40,849 bases of DNA, from assembly GCA_964593315.1 (NCBI GenBank), contig CAZQKJ010000001.1, forward strand, positions 1 through 40,849, in the 5' to 3' direction. This document shows, piece after piece, positions 5,908-36,482 of this stretch; the stretch's first letter is position 1; each line of letters opens with the position of its first letter. The DNA comes from an uncultured Granulosicoccaceae bacterium. Lineage in GTDB: Bacteria > Pseudomonadota > Gammaproteobacteria > Granulosicoccales > Granulosicoccaceae. The notes under the pieces were generated by a model. It was given only the letters and a program-made list of their open reading frames with translations, ran no database searches and was not told where the DNA came from. The position numbers and the translations under genes are program-made.

Positions 5908-6582
5908 CTACAGACTCTGATCGCTGATCACATCACCATCGCGCAAGACGATAGATCGATTTGACTGTGCCGCGATATCAGGCTCGTGAGTTACCAGAAC
6001 CACAGTCATCCCCTGCGCGTTGACCTCTCTAAACATTTGCATGATTTGTTCTGACGTTTGAGTATCTAGCGCACCGGTAGGCTCATCTGCCAACAGCAGT
6101 GCTGGCTCTGTTATCAGAGCTCGAGCAATCGCCACGCGTTGTGACTGGCCGCCGGACAACTCCGAAGGCTTATGGTCCGCGCGATCAGCCAACCCAACAC
6201 GCTCAAGATATTCCATCGCAATTTTGTTACGCTTTTTTCGGGACACGCTTTGATAGTAGAGCGGTAGCGCTACATTCTCTAGCGCACTCTTGTGATGAAT
6301 CAGATTAAACGACTGGAATACAAAACCAATAAAGCGGTTACGGTAACGCGCAGCCTCTGTATCAGACAGATTGACTATCGGGTGACCATCGAGCGTATAA
6401 GTACCATTATCCGGTGTATCCAGTATGCCAAGGATATTCAGTAGCGTTGACTTACCAGATCCGGAGGAGCCTTGAATCGCGACAAACTCGCCCTGCTCGA
6501 TTTGCAGGTTTATATCCGCCAATGCATGCACCCGATGCTGCCCCATCAAATAGGATTTGGCGATATTGGCAAGATCAATCAT
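5908..6582 (-). CDS. ABC transporter ATP-binding protein (MacB/LolD-like nucleotide-binding subunit)
   Basis: Motifs read: Walker [11 protein letters not shown]-loop, signature [15 protein letters not shown], Walker [13 protein letters not shown], and H-loop VLVTHEP. Confidence 0.95.
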
Positions 6583-7930: not shown

Positions 7931-9568
7931 ATGAATCCGGCAGTCAAAGATGTACTAGATCAGTTGAGCATTGATGGCAATACATCTATCACTCTGCCGA
8001 TACACTTTAATTTTGCCTTCGACATCATTGACTATCAGGCAGATCACGATGACAAAACGGCTTATGTAGAAGTCAACTCTGATGGATCAAAGATTGTTGA
8101 GCACAGCTTTTCGCAGCTTAAGAGTAGATCAGCACGTGTTGCATCTGCGCTCCGAGATACAGGTATTGAACACGGCGAATTTGCAGTCGTTATTCTGCCG
8201 AGAATTCCAGCCTGGTATGAAGTTATTATCGGCTGCGCCAAGGCGGGCGTTGTATCTATGCCCGGTACTAATCTGCTCACTGCCAAAGATATCGAGTATC
8301 GGATAAAAAAGGCAGAAGCCAGCACCGTGATTGTCAGTACTGAACACGTTGAGAAAATTGAAGCAATAAAAGCCAATTGCCCTACCTTAAAGCATTTCAT
8401 TGTGGTAGGAGAATCTTCAAACAACAACTGGTTGAACTACGAAGATGCACTGGCACGTGCCAATGACAGCTTCACCCGTGAGAGCACCCAACAGACCAGC
8501 AACGATGATCTGATGATGGCCTATTTTACATCTGGCACTACATCTGACCCCAAGCTGGTAACACGCAATTACGGTTATGGGCTGGCACATGTTGCAACAG
8601 GTGCTTATTGGCTGGACTTGAAACGCGATGATCTGCACTGGACACTGTCAGACACAGGCTGGGCCAAAGCTGCATGGGGTATGCTTTACGCGCCGTGGTT
8701 AATGGGCAGTGCAATGGTACTATTTAATGGCAGCGGCTTTGATGCAGAGCTACATTTGAACTTAATCAAAAAGCTCAAGGTCACTACCTTCTGCGCTCCT
8801 CCAACAGTTTTTCGGCTCTTTGCACAAATGCAGCTCGGCGATTACGATCTATCTTCTATTCGCCACACTGTCAGTGCCGGAGAGCCGTTAAACCCTGAAG
8901 CGATCCGAGTTTGGGAAGAAGCCACGGGCACCACTATTCACGATGGCTATGGTCAAACTGAAACCGTTAATATCGTCGCCAATCGACCGGGCATTGAAGT
9001 GCGCCACGGCTCAATGGGTAAACCGGTACCAGGCTTTGAAGTCGAAGTGATCGATGATGAAGGCAAACGTGTTAACGACGATGAGATAGGTCATATCGCA
9101 ATGAGGATCACAGATCCTGCCCCGATAGGATTATTCGATGGGTATTATGAAAGCCGTACAGAACGCAACCGCAGTGCTTTTAAAAACGGCTATTACTATA
9201 CAGGTGATACCGCTACCCGTGATGCAGAAGGATATATCTGGTTCGTTGGACGCTCTGATGACATCATCAGCTCAGCGGGTTATCGAATCAGCCCGTTTGA
9301 AGTAGAAAGCGTCCTGATGGAACATCCGGCGGTTGTAGAGTCTGCTGTTGTCGCCAAACCAGATGAATTGCGTGGCCATATTGTCAAGGCGTTTCTGGTT
9401 CTGGGTGAAGGCTATACTCCCAGTGAAGAATTGACCGGTGAAATACAGGAGTTTGTTAAGAGCAATACCGCGCCCTACAAATACCCGCGCGAAATCTCTT
9501 ACCGTGACTCACTGCCCAAGACTATATCCTCCAAGATCCGACGCGTAGAGCTACGAGAAGACGATTAA
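7931..9568 (+). CDS. AMP-forming acyl-CoA synthetase (medium-chain/ACSM-like)
   Basis: ANL-superfamily motifs are present: YFTSGTTSDPKLV, GYGQTE, YYTGD, GRSDDIISSAGYRISPFEVES and PKTISSKIRR. Confidence 0.9.
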   Translation: MNPAVKDVLDQLSIDGNTSITLPIHFNFAFDIIDYQADHDDKTAYVEVNSDGSKIVEHSFSQLKSRSARVASALRDTGIEHGEFAVVILPRIPAWYEVIIGCAKAGVVSMPGTNLLTAKDIEYRIKKAEASTVIVSTEHVEKIEAIKANCPTLKHFIVVGESSNNNWLNYEDALARANDSFTRESTQQTSNDDLMMAYFTSGTTSDPKLVTRNYGYGLAHVATGAYWLDLKRDDLHWTLSDTGWAKAAWGMLYAPWLMGSAMVLFNGSGFDAELHLNLIKKLKVTTFCAPPTVFRLFAQMQLGDYDLSSIRHTVSAGEPLNPEAIRVWEEATGTTIHDGYGQTETVNIVANRPGIEVRHGSMGKPVPGFEVEVIDDEGKRVNDDEIGHIAMRITDPAPIGLFDGYYESRTERNRSAFKNGYYYTGDTATRDAEGYIWFVGRSDDIISSAGYRISPFEVESVLMEHPAVVESAVVAKPDELRGHIVKAFLVLGEGYTPSEELTGEIQEFVKSNTAPYKYPREISYRDSLPKTISSKIRRVELREDD

Positions 9569-23035: not shown

Positions 23036-23562
23036 CCTGGATTATTCATGCGGAATCCGCTCGCGGAGACAATTGCACTAATTGCTCGTGTGATTGCCTG
23101 AAAAATCGTGACTCGCTGCGTGACATAAGGAGTCGCGAGAAATGTGACGGGCTTTTGGCCCAGTCGCCTCGTGAATAAGTCGGACTGGTTTGACGCAATA
23201 GGCTAGTCAGGTGCTGGCGCCACGAATCTCGCATCATCACTGGCCTGCCCAGGCCTACAAAGGCTGTGAACTGTAATAGTAATGGCCAGTAACAGCCGTG
23301 CAACCACCACCGTTCACGACGCGTGTTTGGTCACCGATCTTACTGAAACCCGTAGCAGGGCCGCCACAGGTTTTTGCAAAACTCGGGTGTGTAGCAGCAA
23401 TCCATTCTCTGCGATCGTGCGGTTTTGGGGCCTCTCCCACGCTGACACAGTGATCTGGTTCACAGATTTGCCACCACCAACCCTGCAAAACGCTGTAATG
23501 AATAAAAAGATGTGATTATTCGCGCCGTTACACCATGTAAGGTTATCGGAATAAATATAACA

Positions 23563-24594
23563 ATGTCGGACCTGACACCCAAAGGGCACATACTGATCGT
23601 CGACGACGATGAAGCAATCGTGTCCATCGCAAGTAACGTCCTTCTACAAGCAGGCTATGTAACGCTGCCCGCGTATAGTGGCGAGCAAGCGATGGAAGTG
23701 TACGCCACCAACAAGGTAGACGTAGTGCTGACTGATGTCCGTATGGACGGCATGGATGGCTTTGAACTGACAAAGCGCCTAACGCTCGTCGATCAATCAC
23801 TCAATATTATTGTAATGACGAGCTATGACAGCTACGACACTGTCTTAACTGCCCTGCAATGCGGCGCTTATGATTATTTGCAAAAACCACTGGATAATCA
23901 CGACGTATTAACAGCCGCTGTCAACAGAGCCTATTCAAGCAGTAAGCTGCAACGAGAAAATACCAATCTTCTTCTGCAACTTGAAAACAACCACGAAAAA
24001 CTATCCAAAGCCAACAGGCGCCTGGTAGACGCAAACTACAAGTTAAAACGCCTGGCCTCCACTGATACATTAACACTGCTATACAACAGACGTTACTTTG
24101 ATCAAGTATTAAAGCGTGAGTCAGATCGTCGCAACCGCTACAAATTACCATTGTCCGTGGTCATGCTCGACATAGACGATTTTAAGCAAATCAATGATCA
24201 GTACGGACACGAGGCTGGTGACAACGCTATAAAGCAAGTGGCAGTAATTCTCGACGAGTGTGCTCGAGCGGCCGATATTGTTGCGCGCTACGGCGGCGAG
24301 GAGTTTGTCGCACTGCTCCCTCAAACCACACCTGAGAACGCAAACATCTTCGCTGAACGAACACGCGCTGCCATTGAGCAAGCCCGGTTCAAGCTATCCG
24401 ACGATATTCGAGTAAATCTCACCGCAAGCCTCGGCATTGCCGGTGCGCAAGCGACAGATGGTGCAGTCGGGCCACAAAAAATGTTGTCAGCAGCAGACAA
24501 AGCGCTTTACGTTGCTAAACAAAACGGCAAGAACTGCTCAGTCAGCGCATTTGATCTCGACGACTCGGACGAAAACCCGCAAAAAGCCGCGTAG
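23563..24594 (+). CDS. Response regulator with GGDEF output (PleD/WspR-like diguanylate cyclase)
   Basis: The REC domain is present (ILIVDDDE..., DVVLTDVRMDGMDG, the phospho-acceptor Asp). A coiled-coil linker follows, then a GGDEF domain with active site RYGGEEF and an intact I-site RAAD five residues upstream. The start is at ATG 23563 (MSDLTPKG). Confidence 0.9.
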   Translation: MSDLTPKGHILIVDDDEAIVSIASNVLLQAGYVTLPAYSGEQAMEVYATNKVDVVLTDVRMDGMDGFELTKRLTLVDQSLNIIVMTSYDSYDTVLTALQCGAYDYLQKPLDNHDVLTAAVNRAYSSSKLQRENTNLLLQLENNHEKLSKANRRLVDANYKLKRLASTDTLTLLYNRRYFDQVLKRESDRRNRYKLPLSVVMLDIDDFKQINDQYGHEAGDNAIKQVAVILDECARAADIVARYGGEEFVALLPQTTPENANIFAERTRAAIEQARFKLSDDIRVNLTASLGIAGAQATDGAVGPQKMLSAADKALYVAKQNGKNCSVSAFDLDDSDENPQKAA

Positions 24595-31360: not shown

Positions 31361-32024
31361 ATGTTCATCGTTATAATCGCATTATCATTTATCGGATCTG
31401 CATTGGTGCGCGCGTGGATGACCCGCACCTATGGTAATTGGAGTGCAGTACAAAACCAGGCTGGCATAGACGGCCATGCAGCCGCGCTGCCACATACTTG
31501 ATAACAATCAACTGACACAAGTAAAACTTGAAGTTTCAAAAGGAATGCTGACAGACCACTATATTCCGAGTCAAAAGCTCATACGCCTGTCACAGGATAT
31601 CAATAACAGGCCGAGTATCGCAGCGCTTGCAGTTGCCGCACACGAGGTTGGCCACGCCATACAAGACAAGCAGGGTTATGCCCCGCTAAAACTCAAAGCG
31701 GTAATGATGCCGCTGGCCGCTATCGGGAATCGCTTCGGCCTGATTTTAACCGTGGGTGCGAGCTTCATCGGTAGCGGTTTCCTGATCAATATCGGCCTGC
31801 TTATGATGTTACTCGGTATGCTGATGCCTGTACTGACACTGCCGATTGAATTCGATGCCAGTAAACGAGCGCTGCAGGAACTAACCAGATATAAAATGGT
31901 TAATGAAGAAGAGTACGCTGGTGCTAAATCCATGTTAACTGCAGCAGCGCTCACCTACGTTGCCGGTGCAGCATCTTCCATGGCAATAATCGGTCTGCTT
32001 GCCATGCGATTCCTCCGAAGATAA
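31361..32024 (+). pseudogene. Zn-metallopeptidase (YugP/Zn_peptidase_2 family) interrupted by a +1 frameshift
   Basis: Frame A runs from ATG 31361 and encodes MFIVIIALSFIGSALVRAWMTRTYGNWSAVQNQAGIDGHAAALPHT*, ending at TGA 31499-31501. Frame B (the track ORF from 31476) continues with ..HILDNNQLTQVKLEVSKGMLTDHYIPSQKLIRLS....AVAAHEVGHAIQ... Joined, the two pieces give the canonical family N-terminus (TM helix, then G.TG.E.AR.IL..N.L..V.I....LTDHYDP, then HExGH). The shift lies near 31485-31492. Confidence 0.65.
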
Positions 32025-33423: not shown

Positions 33424-34356
33424 ATGACCAGTGACAAGCTGGATCAGGAGATTGCAACGTACCTGACTACTGTGCAAGAAACATTGGCAACAGCACATCA
33501 CTTATCTGTACCACAGATGCGTGAGACCTTTCACGAGCTACGCATGGCTCCCGGAAACCCTGCCGACGTTCATGAAGTAGCTGATATAGAAATACCTGCT
33601 CCACACGGCGCTATTAAATGCCGGATGTATAAACCGTCCGCTGATAATCAGTTACCCGTTCTGGTGTGGTTTCACGGTGGTGGCTGGGTACTGGGTGATC
33701 TCGATAGTGCAGACATGACTTGCCGAGATCTCGCATCCCAATCGGGCTGCATGGTGCTATCGGTTGATTATCGCCTGGCACCTGAACATCAGTTTCCTGC
33801 AGCTTTTAATGATGGACAATGTGCACTGGAGTGGATTTCCAAAAACGCCTCATCTATTGGAGCTGATCCATCTAACATTGCAATTGGCGGGGACAGCGCC
33901 GGTGCGAACATTGCGACCTGTGTATGCCTTGCATCCGGCGATATGTCGCCGGCAGTAAAATTCCAGCTTCTGGTGTACCCGGTGATTGAAGCTGACTTCA
34001 ACAATCAGAGTTATCTTGAAAACGCAGACGGCTATTTCCTGACTCGCAATCTGATGCAATGGTTTTGGGATCACTACGTGCCTGAAGCACACTTAAGAAA
34101 CGATTCCCGGGTATCACCTTTATCTGCACCGCTACAGAATCTTCCCGATGCATGGGTGATGACAGTCGACTTCGATCCCTTGCGTGACGAGGGTATAAAG
34201 TACGCTAAGCTGCTGAAAAACGCCGGCGTAAAGGTCACAACCACCACTGTGCATGACGCGGTTCACGGTTTTTTCACTATGCCGATCAAAGCTGGCGCTG
34301 CCGCTCGCTCCAATGCAGCACTGCAACTGAAGAACGCATTAGTGCATCAATATTGA
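33424..34356 (+). CDS. Alpha/beta-hydrolase esterase/lipase (hormone-sensitive-lipase family)
   Basis: The oxyanion motif is FHGGGW. The nucleophile elbow is GDSAGAN. The catalytic Asp lies in DPLRDEG and the His in HGF. Confidence 0.9.
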   Translation: MTSDKLDQEIATYLTTVQETLATAHHLSVPQMRETFHELRMAPGNPADVHEVADIEIPAPHGAIKCRMYKPSADNQLPVLVWFHGGGWVLGDLDSADMTCRDLASQSGCMVLSVDYRLAPEHQFPAAFNDGQCALEWISKNASSIGADPSNIAIGGDSAGANIATCVCLASGDMSPAVKFQLLVYPVIEADFNNQSYLENADGYFLTRNLMQWFWDHYVPEAHLRNDSRVSPLSAPLQNLPDAWVMTVDFDPLRDEGIKYAKLLKNAGVKVTTTTVHDAVHGFFTMPIKAGAAARSNAALQLKNALVHQY

Positions 34357-34361
34357 TACAG

Positions 34362-34524
34362 ATTGTATCATTATATGAACAAAATCACAGAATCTGGATG
34401 GCTGAAGGTGCATAATATTTCATCAGCTGCACACACAGCTTCAGACCCAAATTCTCCAGAGCCGTTGACGGTAGCCCCGTTGACCAGAAAAGACTGTTCT
34501 CGTAACAGTCTTTTCCTCTGCCTG
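34362..34524 (+). repeat. Noncoding module A of a head-to-tail duplication (candidate sRNA gene or regulatory leader)
   Basis: The module contains: a 29-nt box at 34362-34390; GCATAAT at 34410-34416; the hairpin AGCTG-cacaca-CAGCT at 34425-34440; and a conserved core at 34444-34524 that ends in a hairpin plus T4. It is paralogous to 34590..34762. Confidence 0.6.
34488..34514 (+). terminator. Terminator-like hairpin of module A
   Basis: The hairpin is AAAAGACTGTT-ctcgt-AACAGTCTTTT. The stem is 11 bp but has only 3 G:C pairs, and the A-tract and T-tract are part of the stem. It would be weak as an intrinsic terminator. Confidence 0.35.
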
Positions 34525-34589
34525 ATCGATAATCATTCTCTCGCAGAGCACTGGCTCAAAAGCTACTACTTGTAAAGAAAATGATACGC

Positions 34590-34762
34590 AATGTATTATT
34601 ATGTGAACAACATCACAGCATGAATACAGTAATCAGGGCATAATTCAATCATCAACTGAAGGCAAGCATCATCTGCCTTCCGGACCCAATTCTCCAGAGC
34701 CGTTGACGGTAGCTCCGTTAACCCGAAAAGACTGTTCCTGAAACAGTCTTTTCCTCTGCCTG
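34590..34762 (+). repeat. Noncoding module B of the head-to-tail duplication
   Basis: The module contains: a 29-nt box at 34590-34618 (25/29 identical to A); GCATAAT at 34638-34644; the hairpin GAAGGCA-agcatcatc-TGCCTTC at 34658-34680; and a core at 34683-34762, about 91% identical to 34444-34524. Confidence 0.6.
34726..34752 (+). terminator. Terminator-like hairpin of module B
   Basis: The hairpin is AAAAGACTGTT-cctga-AACAGTCTTTT. The stem is identical to copy A, while 3 of the 5 loop bases differ. Confidence 0.35.
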
Positions 34763-34885
34763 GGCCAAACTGCATTGCCTGCCGATGTGTCTTTCTCTTC
34801 TGTATCGCCTCAAAAATACAACTGCCAGTCTTCAGCAACTATGCGTTCTGTTTTATGATTTGCTCTGCCACGCGGAGGATCAAGC

Positions 34886-35935
34886 ATGTCTGAGCAACCA
34901 ACAACCACTCTGTTAGACACTGATGTAAGTTACCTGGACTGCAGCAATGAGGCATCCAGTATCAGGACAATTCCAGACCACAGAAGAGTTTGGATTGCCA
35001 GAGACATCACCCGTACTGACTGGCTTATAAAATTAAACTCAAAAGCCGTTGCCGAAGTTCGTAACGCAGCAGACTTTATAAGCAATCATCCGGTTGGCAA
35101 TATGGCACGCACGCCAGATGATCTCGAGCTCTCCGAATGCAGAAAAATATTCAAAGAAGTAAAAAGAAATCTCGATGAAGGCGTGGGCTTTGCGGTTGTA
35201 GATCATCTGCCAGTGGATGACTATCCGCTGGAAGTGAGTGTTGAACTCTACTGGGTACTGGGTCAGCTGATAGCAAGACCGGTCGCCCAAAAGCGAAGCG
35301 GACAAATGATCTATGACGTACGCGACATCAGTCAGGCTTACACCTATGGTGTACGCGGCTCATGGACTAACGTTGAGCTGAATTTTCACACCGATAATGC
35401 ATTTGGAAAATGCCCTCCCGATTACGTCGGCTTGTTCTGTAAACACCCGGCCAAAGAAGGAGGTATCAGTCGTTTTTGTAGTCTGTATGCTGTTCACCAA
35501 CGCCTGCAAGATCATTATCCTGACGCACTGTCGCGCCTCTACCAACCCATGTTATTTGATCGTCAAAAAGAACATGCTGAATCTGAACCTGCCGTCACGC
35601 TTGCACCATTTTTCAGTTGGCGCTATGACCGTCTTTTTGCCCGCGCCAACCCTTCTCTGGTTCGCAAGGGTTATGACGTTGCCGGTAAATGTATGGACGC
35701 AGACCTCACGGATGCGCTCAATGCCGTAGATGAAGTAAGCCAGTCATCAGACCTGTGGTTTGAAGCAGCGCTTGAACGCGGCCAGATCCAATACCTGAAT
35801 AACAGTGAGGTTGGCCACTATCGAAGCGAGTTTATCGATCACGATGAAAGCCACTTAAAGCGCCACCTGTTCAGGCTGTGGCACCGCAAGCACGGCTCCG
35901 CCTGTTATGACGGCGGCACCAGTGTATTGCCCTGA
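34886..35935 (+). CDS. TauD/TfdA-family Fe(II)/2-oxoglutarate-dependent oxygenase
   Basis: GGAGG lies 7 nt upstream. The HxD facial-triad motif is in VELNFHTDNAF. A distal His and Arg lie in GHYRSEF...RHLFRLW. Confidence 0.8.
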   Translation: MSEQPTTTLLDTDVSYLDCSNEASSIRTIPDHRRVWIARDITRTDWLIKLNSKAVAEVRNAADFISNHPVGNMARTPDDLELSECRKIFKEVKRNLDEGVGFAVVDHLPVDDYPLEVSVELYWVLGQLIARPVAQKRSGQMIYDVRDISQAYTYGVRGSWTNVELNFHTDNAFGKCPPDYVGLFCKHPAKEGGISRFCSLYAVHQRLQDHYPDALSRLYQPMLFDRQKEHAESEPAVTLAPFFSWRYDRLFARANPSLVRKGYDVAGKCMDADLTDALNAVDEVSQSSDLWFEAALERGQIQYLNNSEVGHYRSEFIDHDESHLKRHLFRLWHRKHGSACYDGGTSVLP

Positions 35936-35978
35936 ACACTCGCCTTCACAAGCGCTCAATCACAAAACTTAACCGGGT

Positions 35979-36482
35979 TTAAACCAGCGCTGTACCGACC
36001 ACCGAGACACTGGCAAACGCACTGTTCTCAACGACAATCGACACGGTCTTTTGTAGAGTCTCTGTGAGAGAGCCGGGTACACTCGAGCCAGCAATCATTG
36101 CAAGTGGTTTGCGCTGCATTCCAACTGTCGCAGACTTACCGGCGGCAAGTCGCAGTGGACCATTGGCAAGGAGTGGAGTGAAATCAAACTCCCCTCTGGC
36201 AACACGGACTTTCGCGGGAGTCAGCTGAGTGATAGTGAGTCTTTGATCACCAGTGTTGGTAATTACCACTTCTAGCTCATTTCGAATTGCAGATACACGA
36301 GTCGACACTTGAACCGTAGCAAGTTCAGCTGCATCGCGCCCTGAGTTACCAGATGCCTTATTGGATAAAAAATCCTGATTGCCACTCCAGGCACTCTCTG
36401 CACGTGCCGCCTTTGTGATGGCTGTCGCCGCTATAGTTAACGCCAGGGATTTGAGGGTGTTTCGCTTGCTGTTATCAATCAT
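35979..36482 (-). CDS. Secreted protein with a Tat-like (KR variant) signal peptide; function unknown
   Basis: The signal region is MIDNSKRNTLKSLALTIAATAITKAARA/ES: a K-R-N-T-L-K motif, a hydrophobic stretch and an AxA cleavage site. The mature ~139 aa look beta-rich and contain no Cys, His or Tyr. Confidence 0.55.
   Translation of the reverse strand: MIDNSKRNTLKSLALTIAATAITKAARAESAWSGNQDFLSNKASGNSGRDAAELATVQVSTRVSAIRNELEVVITNTGDQRLTITQLTPAKVRVARGEFDFTPLLANGPLRLAAGKSATVGMQRKPLAMIAGSSVPGSLTETLQKTVSIVVENSAFASVSVVGTALV

Follow-up and report, generated by a model that had tools for sequence, protein, structure and literature searches.

Class II promoters of the cyclic AMP (cAMP) receptor protein CRP, for example galP1 in the model of Busby and Ebright, have an activator site that is centred at position -41.5, where it overlaps and replaces the -35 element. 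Small RNA (sRNA) genes with a promoter of their own can be embedded at the 3' end of another gene, as is the case for sRNAs of the DapZ and MicL type. For the PrrF sRNAs, whose tandem arrangement is to our knowledge restricted to P. aeruginosa, a read-through tandem transcript, PrrH, exists. Tandem sibling sRNAs are a known theme (PMC4211561). The promoter of the sRNA CyaR is cAMP-CRP-dependent (PMC5861431), and in Yersinia, CRP binds directly to cyaR and CRP sites are common at sRNA promoters (PMC4376681). Here, we describe a locus of an uncultured Granulosicoccaceae bacterium, located in a stretch of 40,849 nucleotides (contig CAZQKJ010000001.1, assembly GCA_964593315.1; hereafter the window), in which the spacer between an esterase gene and a TauD-like dioxygenase gene (positions 34357-34885) holds two copies, A and B, of one noncoding module. 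We propose that the two modules are probably genes for sibling trans-acting sRNAs of approximately 100-110 nt, which would be transcribed from class II promoters activated by a CRP-family protein, and which are duplicated in tandem here and single-copy in the relatives of this species.

Two tandem modules and their single-copy orthologues

Repeat finding and a MAFFT alignment revealed two modules in head-to-tail orientation, with their parts in the order described by a first-pass annotation of the window, and each part was recovered at the position that this annotation had assigned to it. Each module starts with a box (34354-34393 in copy A and 34582-34621 in copy B; 83% identity over 40 nt), within which the two 29-nt segments paired by the annotation again match at 25 of 29 positions. 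This is followed by GCATAAT (34410-34416 and 34638-34644) and by a 5' hairpin, which is found at the same position in both copies but has, as previously noticed, unrelated stem sequences. The core (34439-34524 and 34677-34762; 86 nt) differs by one indel and six substitutions between the copies and is 88-92% identical, compared to an earlier estimate of about 91%. It ends with a perfect 12-bp hairpin, termed P3 below, whose stem is the same in both copies and in whose loop three of five bases differ; the annotation had recognised the identical stem and the differing loop bases and had given the stem length as 11 bp. The spacer, which had been described as AT-rich, is only mildly so, with a GC content of 44.4% compared to 49.2% for the window. 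The core pattern and the box pattern are each found twice in the 40.8-kb window, while shuffled sequences are expected to contain 0.00 of each, and the modular repeat is far beyond chance.

The tandem arrangement is genuine and no assembly artefact, because both copies are also present in two other metagenome assemblies (L040 and L041), which have an average nucleotide identity of 99.2% to the window over 5.8-7 kb. As expected for sibling sRNA genes, copies A and B each possess a predicted promoter and a predicted terminator. Three further public contigs of the same species break inside the repeat (L001:1-77, L002:1-16 and L042:5177-5223), and these three contig ends consist of untrimmed Nextera/Illumina adapter, located exactly at the start or end of the tandem repeat.

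As judged by comparison of their sequences, the two copies arose by tandem duplication of a unit of approximately 230-240 bp. Directly 5' of copy B lies TTGTAAAGAAAA, which resembles the 3' end and stop codon of the esterase genes of the relatives and matches …TGTAAAGAAAAA in L046. This segment is probably a leftover of the duplication unit, derived from the ancestral esterase stop region. Since the duplication, the spacer between box and -10 hexamer, the 5' hairpin and the tail have diverged to saturation and are neutral, whereas the box, the -10 hexamer and the core are still 83-92% identical.

In the window, the modules are preceded by genes coding for a RamB-like regulator, malate synthase, isocitrate lyase, MatE, GST, a Zn-peptidase, glycerate kinase and the following esterase:

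33424-34356 (+): esterase/lipase gene (Abhydrolase_3, LipP1-like), assigned by Pfam and NCBIfam matches

They are followed by the TauD-like dioxygenase gene, a gene of unknown function coding for 167 amino acids (aa) on the minus strand, an MttB-family methyltransferase gene and a dimethylglycine-dehydrogenase-like gene. The window is part of the chromosome of an uncultured marine gammaproteobacterium; among named organisms, its closest relatives according to isocitrate lyase are 'Chromatiales bacterium ex Bugula neritina AB1' (86%) and Granulosicoccus (79%). Relatives were identified by synteny, using esterase homologues with 61-66% identity that are located on long contigs with the same gene order. 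In four of these lineages (L044, L046, L048 and L051), a single copy of the element lies right behind the esterase stop codon; the next gene is the unknown one, which is convergent on the minus strand, and a TauD-like gene is missing. An element with its own promoter footprint (see below) and an intergenic position between convergent genes in four relatives is what one would expect of the independent transcription unit of a trans-acting sRNA, as far as this can be read from sequence.

A covariance model (CM) built from the cores of the window species alone (R1) gave one full-length match per relative, namely L044 9059-9144 (80.9 bits), L046 9036-9121 (70.2 bits), L048 6086-6172 (81.1 bits) and L051 6029-6111 (66.6 bits). 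A refined model (R2) scored 87-108 bits on the six true copies and at most 12 bits on unrelated DNA in 357 kb, which included 31 decoy loci carrying the exact 18-mer TTCTCCAGAGCCGTTGAC; on the opposite strand, only the palindromic P3 was matched (at most 25.6 bits). Between lineages, the core is 76-86% identical, compared to 61-67% for the DNA of the adjacent esterase gene. The first-pass annotation had considered that the core might lack conservation in relatives or be scattered as a repeat of the repetitive extragenic palindromic (REP) or miniature inverted-repeat transposable element (MITE) type. An orthologue is found in four syntenic lineages, and there was no other occurrence in the 357 kb scanned. 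The 18-mer had 11 matches in 185,579 species-representative genomes and 20 in JGI metagenomes, all of them fortuitous, 18-21 nt long and from unrelated phyla; its sequence is different in the true relatives (…GAGCGGTTAAC / …GAGCGTTGAC). The family signature ACGGTAGCYCCGTTRRCN{2,3}GAAAAGACT had no match in viral contigs, megablast against E. coli genomes gave no match and the conserved motifs, searched as strings in the literature, returned nothing relevant.

Two observations concern the region downstream of the sRNA. In all five lineages, the sRNA has the 167-aa gene (35979-36482, minus strand) as its convergent neighbour, with lengths of 154-174 aa; Pfam and NCBIfam gave no match to this gene, and its sequence matches in the PDB were not significant (best E = 0.44). 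L048 has approximately 270 extra nucleotides (6173-6440) between the sRNA and the unknown gene. In this stretch, TATAAT and the subsequent TTCCACTTCATGCTGCG are similar to the -10/TCATCAGCTGC start of the sRNA, but no core is present, and the stretch may be a degenerate second copy or code for another small transcript.

Promoter footprint and predicted RNA fold

We aligned the promoters of copies A and B and of the four orthologues, anchored on the box. This revealed what the first-pass annotation had overlooked, namely that the 29-nt box closely matches the consensus of a CRP-type site and is placed at class II spacing. The promoter elements in the window are:

34374-34389 (+): CRP-type site of copy A, TATGA-ACAAAA-TCACA, 9 of 10 half-site positions; centre at 34381.5, 29.5 bp before the -10 hexamer
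34602-34617 (+): CRP-type site of copy B, TGTGA-ACAACA-TCACA, 10 of 10 half-site positions; centre at 34609.5, 29.5 bp before the -10 hexamer
34411-34416 (+): -10 hexamer CATAAT of copy A, with ATAAT invariant across the six promoters
34639-34644 (+): -10 hexamer CATAAT of copy B, with ATAAT likewise invariant
34354-34370 (+): upstream palindrome of copy A, TGATACA-N3-TGTATCA, a perfect inverted repeat centred at about -61
34582-34598 (+): upstream element of copy B, TGATACG-CAA-TGTATTA, from the promoter alignment, preceded by TTGTAAAGAAAA

All ten half-site positions of TGTGA-N6-TCACA are matched in copy B, L046 and L048, nine in copy A and L044 and eight in L051, and the site of copy B is the sole perfect match to this pattern in the window. 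Invariant or near-invariant columns are TGATACA (approximately -69 to -63), T(G/A)TGAACA-N3-TCACAG and ATAAT. Within T(G/A)TGA-N6-(T/G)CAC(A/G), the bases TGAACA…CAC are invariant in the six promoters, as is ATAAT, and the 21-nt spacer between the box and ATAAT contains zero invariant columns. The distance between the centre of the CRP-type site and the first base of the -10 hexamer is 29.5 bp in six of six promoters. TCATC is conserved 3' of the -10 hexamer, and its A, which is located 6-8 nt past the hexamer, is the likely transcription start. The distance of 29.5 bp corresponds to -41.5 only if transcription starts 7 nt after the -10 hexamer, and the predicted start falls at 6-8 nt. Neither a promoter scan nor the alignment of the six promoters detected a TTGACA-like -35 element. 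Taken together, the footprint predicts that the box is a CRP-type site in class II geometry, which replaces the -35 element. The protein bound could be CRP, Vfr, Clp or another member of the family; among the window open reading frames (ORFs) of at least 150 aa, none codes for a CRP-family protein. A third CRP-like site, AGTGATCTGGTTCACA (9/10), is found elsewhere in the window at 23449-23464, 48 nt 5' of the GTG start of an ORF coding for a response-regulator/GGDEF diguanylate cyclase (23512-24594).

The left half of the upstream palindrome, TGATACA, is kept in six of six promoters, including L044 (8964-8970) and L048 (5967-5973), and in copy A the palindrome is centred approximately 20 bp upstream of the centre of the CRP-type site. 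Its conservation suggests that it may be the site of a second regulator. We considered a Fur box for this palindrome and rejected it as a poor match, with 5/7 positions per half-site and the wrong spacing, so that the resemblance is only a loose one. A promoter-like sequence, TTGTAA-18-TATTAT (34570-34599), was dismissed as a chance occurrence; neither copy A nor the relatives retain it, and its start would fall inside the CRP box.

The predicted transcripts and their structural elements are:

34422-34520 (+): predicted sRNA A, approximately 99 nt, from the A of TCATC; both ends are predictions
34425-29/34436-40 (+): 5' hairpin of sRNA A, stem AGCUG/CAGCU
34441-34456 (+): single-stranded CU-rich linker of sRNA A, …ACCCAAAUUCUCC
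34457-61/34516-20, 34464-71/34477-84 and 34487-98/34504-15 (+): helices P1, P2 and P3 of sRNA A, followed by UUUUCCUCU(G)
34651-34758 (+): predicted sRNA B, approximately 108 nt; both ends are predictions
34658-64/34674-80 (+): 5' hairpin of sRNA B, stem GAAGGCA/UGCCUUC
34681-34694 (+): linker of sRNA B
34695-99/34754-58, 34702-09/34715-22 and 34725-36/34742-53 (+): helices P1, P2 and P3 of sRNA B, followed by a U-tract

The six predicted transcripts (99-132 nt) share one common architecture, in which a 5' hairpin that varies in length and is unrelated in sequence precedes the linker, P1, P2, P3 and UUUUCCUCUG, and their folds have z-scores of -4.4 to -6.6. For sRNA A, the minimum free energy (MFE) is -31.8 kcal/mol (z = -4.75) and the CM score 112.6 bits; the corresponding values for sRNA B are -37.5 kcal/mol (z = -5.41) and 109.8 bits. 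The linker of 12-16 nt is CU-rich (…ACCGAAUUUCUCC, written also …AAUUUCUCC) and unpaired in six of six folds. Its 3' end, CUCC, and the adjoining P1 arm CUCCAGAGC are kept in five lineages, with CUAC in strain L042 as the exception. P1 is the closing helix CAGAG/CUCUG, which the first-pass annotation had proposed as a possibility and which is present in all six folds. The internal direct repeat CCGTTGAC..CCGTTRAC that it had reported in the core is in fact a hairpin: its two halves are the arms of the 8-bp hairpin P2, which makes use of G·U pairs. The top of P2, ACGG-UAGCU-CCGU, is almost invariant, and an invariant ACGGUAGCUCCGU hairpin is found within the three-helix domain. Conserved CU-rich stretches are the CUCC of the linker, a second CUCC in the nearly invariant loop and 3' arm of P2, and a CCUCU at the 3' end; by analogy with CyaR, they look like anti-Shine-Dalgarno seeds.

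Base pairing was assessed in nine distinct sequences (224 pair cells). Standard pairs make up 99.6% of the cells, compared to 38-57% when the partners are slid by 1-3 columns. Two-sided changes occur in three pairs (G-C>A-U and U-A>C-G in P3, and U-A or U·G>C-G in P2), and one-sided changes in four more pairs keep standard, mostly wobble, pairing. Variable columns account for 10 of 50 paired positions versus 28 of 40 unpaired positions (Fisher p = 2e-6). The fold is specific to the plus strand, the one read from the promoter, because the G·U pairs of P2 become A·C mismatches on the other strand. P3 has 11-13 bp with compensatory changes and is followed or overlapped by the invariant UUUUCCUCUG.

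With Rfam 15 at gathering thresholds, no match was obtained in the window or in the four orthologous loci, and with E values of up to 10, region 34200-35000 gave only sub-threshold snoRNA and miRNA noise (at most 17.4 bits). The families scanned included CyaR (RF00112), Spot 42 (RF00021), PrrF (RF00444), OmrA-B (RF00079), Qrr (RF00378) and the riboswitch classes, in accordance with the earlier remark that the core matched no known riboswitch class.

Based on these data, we propose the following mechanism. A CRP-family dimer would bind to the TGTGA-N6-TCACA site near -41.5 of a class II promoter without -35 element and recruit RNA polymerase to the xATAAT -10 hexamer. Transcription would begin at the A of TCATC and end at the P3 hairpin plus UUUUCCUCU, resulting in an RNA of approximately 100-110 nt (99-132 nt in the relatives) with a variable 5' hairpin, a CU-rich linker and a compact P1/P2/P3 domain. 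Under carbon limitation, when cAMP-CRP is active, the CU-rich stretches of this RNA would pair in trans with ribosome-binding regions of target mRNAs, and in the window species the neighbouring TauD-like mRNA is a candidate target. The esterase mRNA probably co-terminates at P3, the first predicted terminator 3' of the esterase gene, in a DapZ/MicL-like manner. The idea of the first-pass annotation that each module forms a small transcription unit of its own, and that the two form a sibling sRNA pair, is supported at the sequence level by the single-copy orthologues with the same layout and by the helix-compatible changes.

The TauD-like gene and alternative readings

The features relevant to the downstream neighbour are:

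34886-35935 (+): TauD/TfdA-family dioxygenase gene (Pfam match), downstream of the modules and in the same orientation
34861-34895 (+): translation-initiation region of the TauD-like gene, candidate sRNA target, with three blocks of complementarity to the linker and the 5' arm of P1

The TauD-like gene and its 123-nt leader are located between the sRNA and the convergent gene in the window species only and are absent in the four syntenic relatives. Comparison of the intervals (34763-35978 in the window versus L044 9145-9230, L046 9122-9142, L048 6173-6440 and L051 6112-6228) identifies them as an insertion of the window species, as is the duplication. TauD homologues with 71% identity (L003) are found elsewhere, beside creatinase, MttB and dimethylglycine dehydrogenase genes, and no core is present upstream of TauD homologues with 70-74% identity (L003-L008). 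The segment CCTCAAAAATACAACTGCCAGT (34807-34829), which includes the recurrence of CAGTCTT at 34826-34832 reported by the annotation, resembles the left arm of a bidirectional terminator that L044 carries next to the unknown gene (AAAAAAATACCTGCCAGTGGCAGGTATTTTT, approximately 9165-9192) and may be a remnant that marks the insertion point of the TauD-like gene.

The three blocks of complementarity are GCUCU, GGAGGAU, the Shine-Dalgarno sequence, and GUCUGAG (codons 1-3). RNAduplex energies against this region are -20.2 kcal/mol for sRNA A and -17.6 kcal/mol for sRNA B, and the next best of 12 local genes reaches -12.3 kcal/mol. Among the syntenic genes, target prediction identified no gene that is consistently best across loci. 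We tentatively suggest that the ribosome-binding region of the TauD-like gene is a lineage-specific sRNA target.

The same complementarity could also be read in a different way. The first-pass annotation had put forward as an alternative that the modules are a duplicated attenuator or riboswitch-like leader of the methylated-amine genes. In a leader of this kind, whether riboswitch-like or protein-dependent, the stop or release of transcription at P3 would control the TauD-like and methylated-amine genes. Both copies are oriented in the same direction as the TauD-like gene, and a simple scan of the 123 nt that separate copy B from the TauD start codon (ATG) recognised no sigma-70-like promoter. 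The 5' part of the core is complementary to the ribosome-binding region of the TauD-like gene, and the terminator-like hairpin comes after a compact three-helix domain that is highly conserved. As a family, however, the element is not a leader or riboswitch of the TauD-like gene or of any other downstream gene, because in the four relatives it faces the convergent gene and the TauD-like gene is absent; a conserved 5' position before a regulated gene, as a leader would have, is not seen. In addition, every copy retains the full promoter footprint, unlike tandem riboswitches, no riboswitch or leader family of Rfam matched even at E values of up to 10, no upstream anti-terminator alternative to P3 is evident, and the read-through fold from copy B to the TauD-like gene has no dominant structure (MFE frequency 0.0004). 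We therefore regard a cis-acting leader as an unlikely explanation. A variant limited to the window species is that the P1/P2/P3 domain is a ligand- or protein-binding module, and that copy B has been captured as a conditional terminator or leader which drives the TauD-like gene from the CRP-type promoter. This is equally doubtful; if true, a trans-acting sRNA gene would here be in the course of becoming a cis-regulatory 5' leader, or one RNA would serve as both sRNA and leader.

Slightly less likely again is that the element is the 3' end of the esterase operon, i.e. a terminator, a stability element in the 3' untranslated region (3'-UTR) or a processed 3'-UTR-derived sRNA without its own promoter. 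The esterase gene adjoins the RNA directly upstream in all four relatives, with no intervening terminator, P3 is the first terminator-like hairpin 3' of the gene, and in the window the esterase stop codon (TGA, 34354-56) falls inside the first conserved promoter element. A terminator, however, requires neither a CRP box and -10 hexamer at fixed spacing nor a conserved linker or an invariant P2 loop. Copy B is located behind the predicted terminator of copy A and has the same promoter footprint, and the promoter parts survived the duplication while neutral parts diverged to saturation. This explanation also overlaps with that of an sRNA gene, as sRNAs of the DapZ/MicL type by analogy combine their own promoter at the 3' end of a gene with a shared terminator.

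A dispersed repeat (REP, bacterial interspersed mosaic element or MITE type), a small protein gene or a functionless chance duplication is very improbable and largely refuted: although the modules overlap with ORFs (70 and 79 aa) and P3 is a perfect, REP-like palindrome, there are two copies at one locus in the window, one per orthologous locus and none elsewhere in the 357 kb, the position is syntenic in five lineages, the core is better conserved than the neighbouring gene and, as the annotation had argued, the modules are noncoding, with ORFs on different strands in copies A and B, 1-nt indels between copies and lineages, and no true homologue of the 70-aa ORF among 1.84 billion protein representatives. 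The single match to this ORF, P0262, was rejected as an unrelated 347-aa translation of a 53-bp tandem satellite array (L043 1501-2544).

Several points weigh against our proposal of CRP-activated sibling sRNAs. The window contains 3 CRP-like sites where 1.7 are expected, which is not significant by count; the argument for the site is made by the phylogenetic footprint and the fixed geometry and not by the number of sites. Half-sites are weaker in two promoters, with TATGA in copy A and TATGA/TCACG in L051. With regard to the fold, P1 is invariant across lineages and hence without covariation, and covariation is seen for three pairs in five lineages. A simple terminator scan made no call at P3, whose maximal 12-bp stem takes up U4, so that the remaining U-tract is short and interrupted (UUUUCCUCU); when P3 is taken as a 7-bp stem, GACUGUU/AACAGUC, with 3 G-C pairs, the 5 U in the next 8 nt satisfy the criteria of the scan. 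Pairing of the A-tract with the U's is not ideal for the binding of Hfq. No homologue was found outside the clade, where the scan of large collections consisted of one exact 18-mer that the true relatives lack. The complementarity to the TauD-like gene is modest (shuffle p ~0.012, with 2.2% of the window tiles scoring as well), and TauD homologues elsewhere lack it. Finally, copy B may also be part of a TauD leader in the window species, which is conceivable because no promoter was recognised between the two.

One further observation relates to the upstream gene cluster. The Zn-metallopeptidase gene (31361-32024) is split into ORFs of 46 and 182 aa by a 1-nt insertion (GCGCTGCC versus GCGCGCC). 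It is a single 220-aa gene in strain L040 and is also split in L042, and the split is a frameshift or strain polymorphism.

Comparison with known sRNA systems

Taken together, the modules would constitute a new and comparatively well supported sRNA family in uncultured marine Gammaproteobacteria, for which hardly any riboregulators are known, and we supply this family with a covariance model and a signature pattern. Its very clean promoter footprint would tie the family to a CRP-type catabolite signal. The locus also presents a natural case of a recent sRNA duplication beside a newly acquired gene with a complementary ribosome-binding region, which could be useful for studying the origins of sibling sRNAs and of their targets. 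The kind of regulator is already familiar, and no new regulatory principle is involved.

In several aspects, the predicted RNAs resemble CyaR (RyeE, RF00112), an enterobacterial, Hfq-dependent sRNA, namely in their length of approximately 90-110 nt and, as predicted features, in a C/U-rich seed directed at Shine-Dalgarno regions and in an intrinsic terminator. The logic that we propose is the same, in that carbon limitation would lead to post-transcriptional repression. In contrast to CyaR, to which there is no match in sequence or structure (cmscan, E up to 10), the RNAs described here possess a P1/P2/P3 three-helix domain and are found in a clade of uncultured marine Gammaproteobacteria, and their dependence on CRP is predicted from the promoter footprint.

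The tandem arrangement is reminiscent of PrrF1/PrrF2 in Pseudomonas and OmrA/OmrB in E. coli, which are head-to-tail homologues, each with the same regulated promoter and its own terminator (PMC4211561). As in these pairs, the core is conserved, other parts have diverged and the duplication is lineage-specific. The regulators differ, with Fur for PrrF and OmpR for OmrA/OmrB compared to a CRP-type site here, and neither RF00444 nor RF00079 matched.

Similar to class II CRP promoters, the six promoters have in common a 16-bp TGTGA-N6-TCACA-like site at an identical position, centred 29.5 bp before the -10 hexamer, which would equal -41.5 with a 7-nt discriminator. They differ by the additional conserved palindrome at approximately -61, and their start position is a prediction. 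Lastly, as for DapZ and MicL, the predicted promoter adjoins the stop codon of the preceding gene or overlaps with it, and no other terminator lies between that gene and the predicted terminator of the sRNA. Here, however, the promoter is located essentially after the coding sequence and not inside it, the sRNA lies outside the coding 3' region, and co-termination of the esterase mRNA at the same hairpin is what we infer from the arrangement of the locus.

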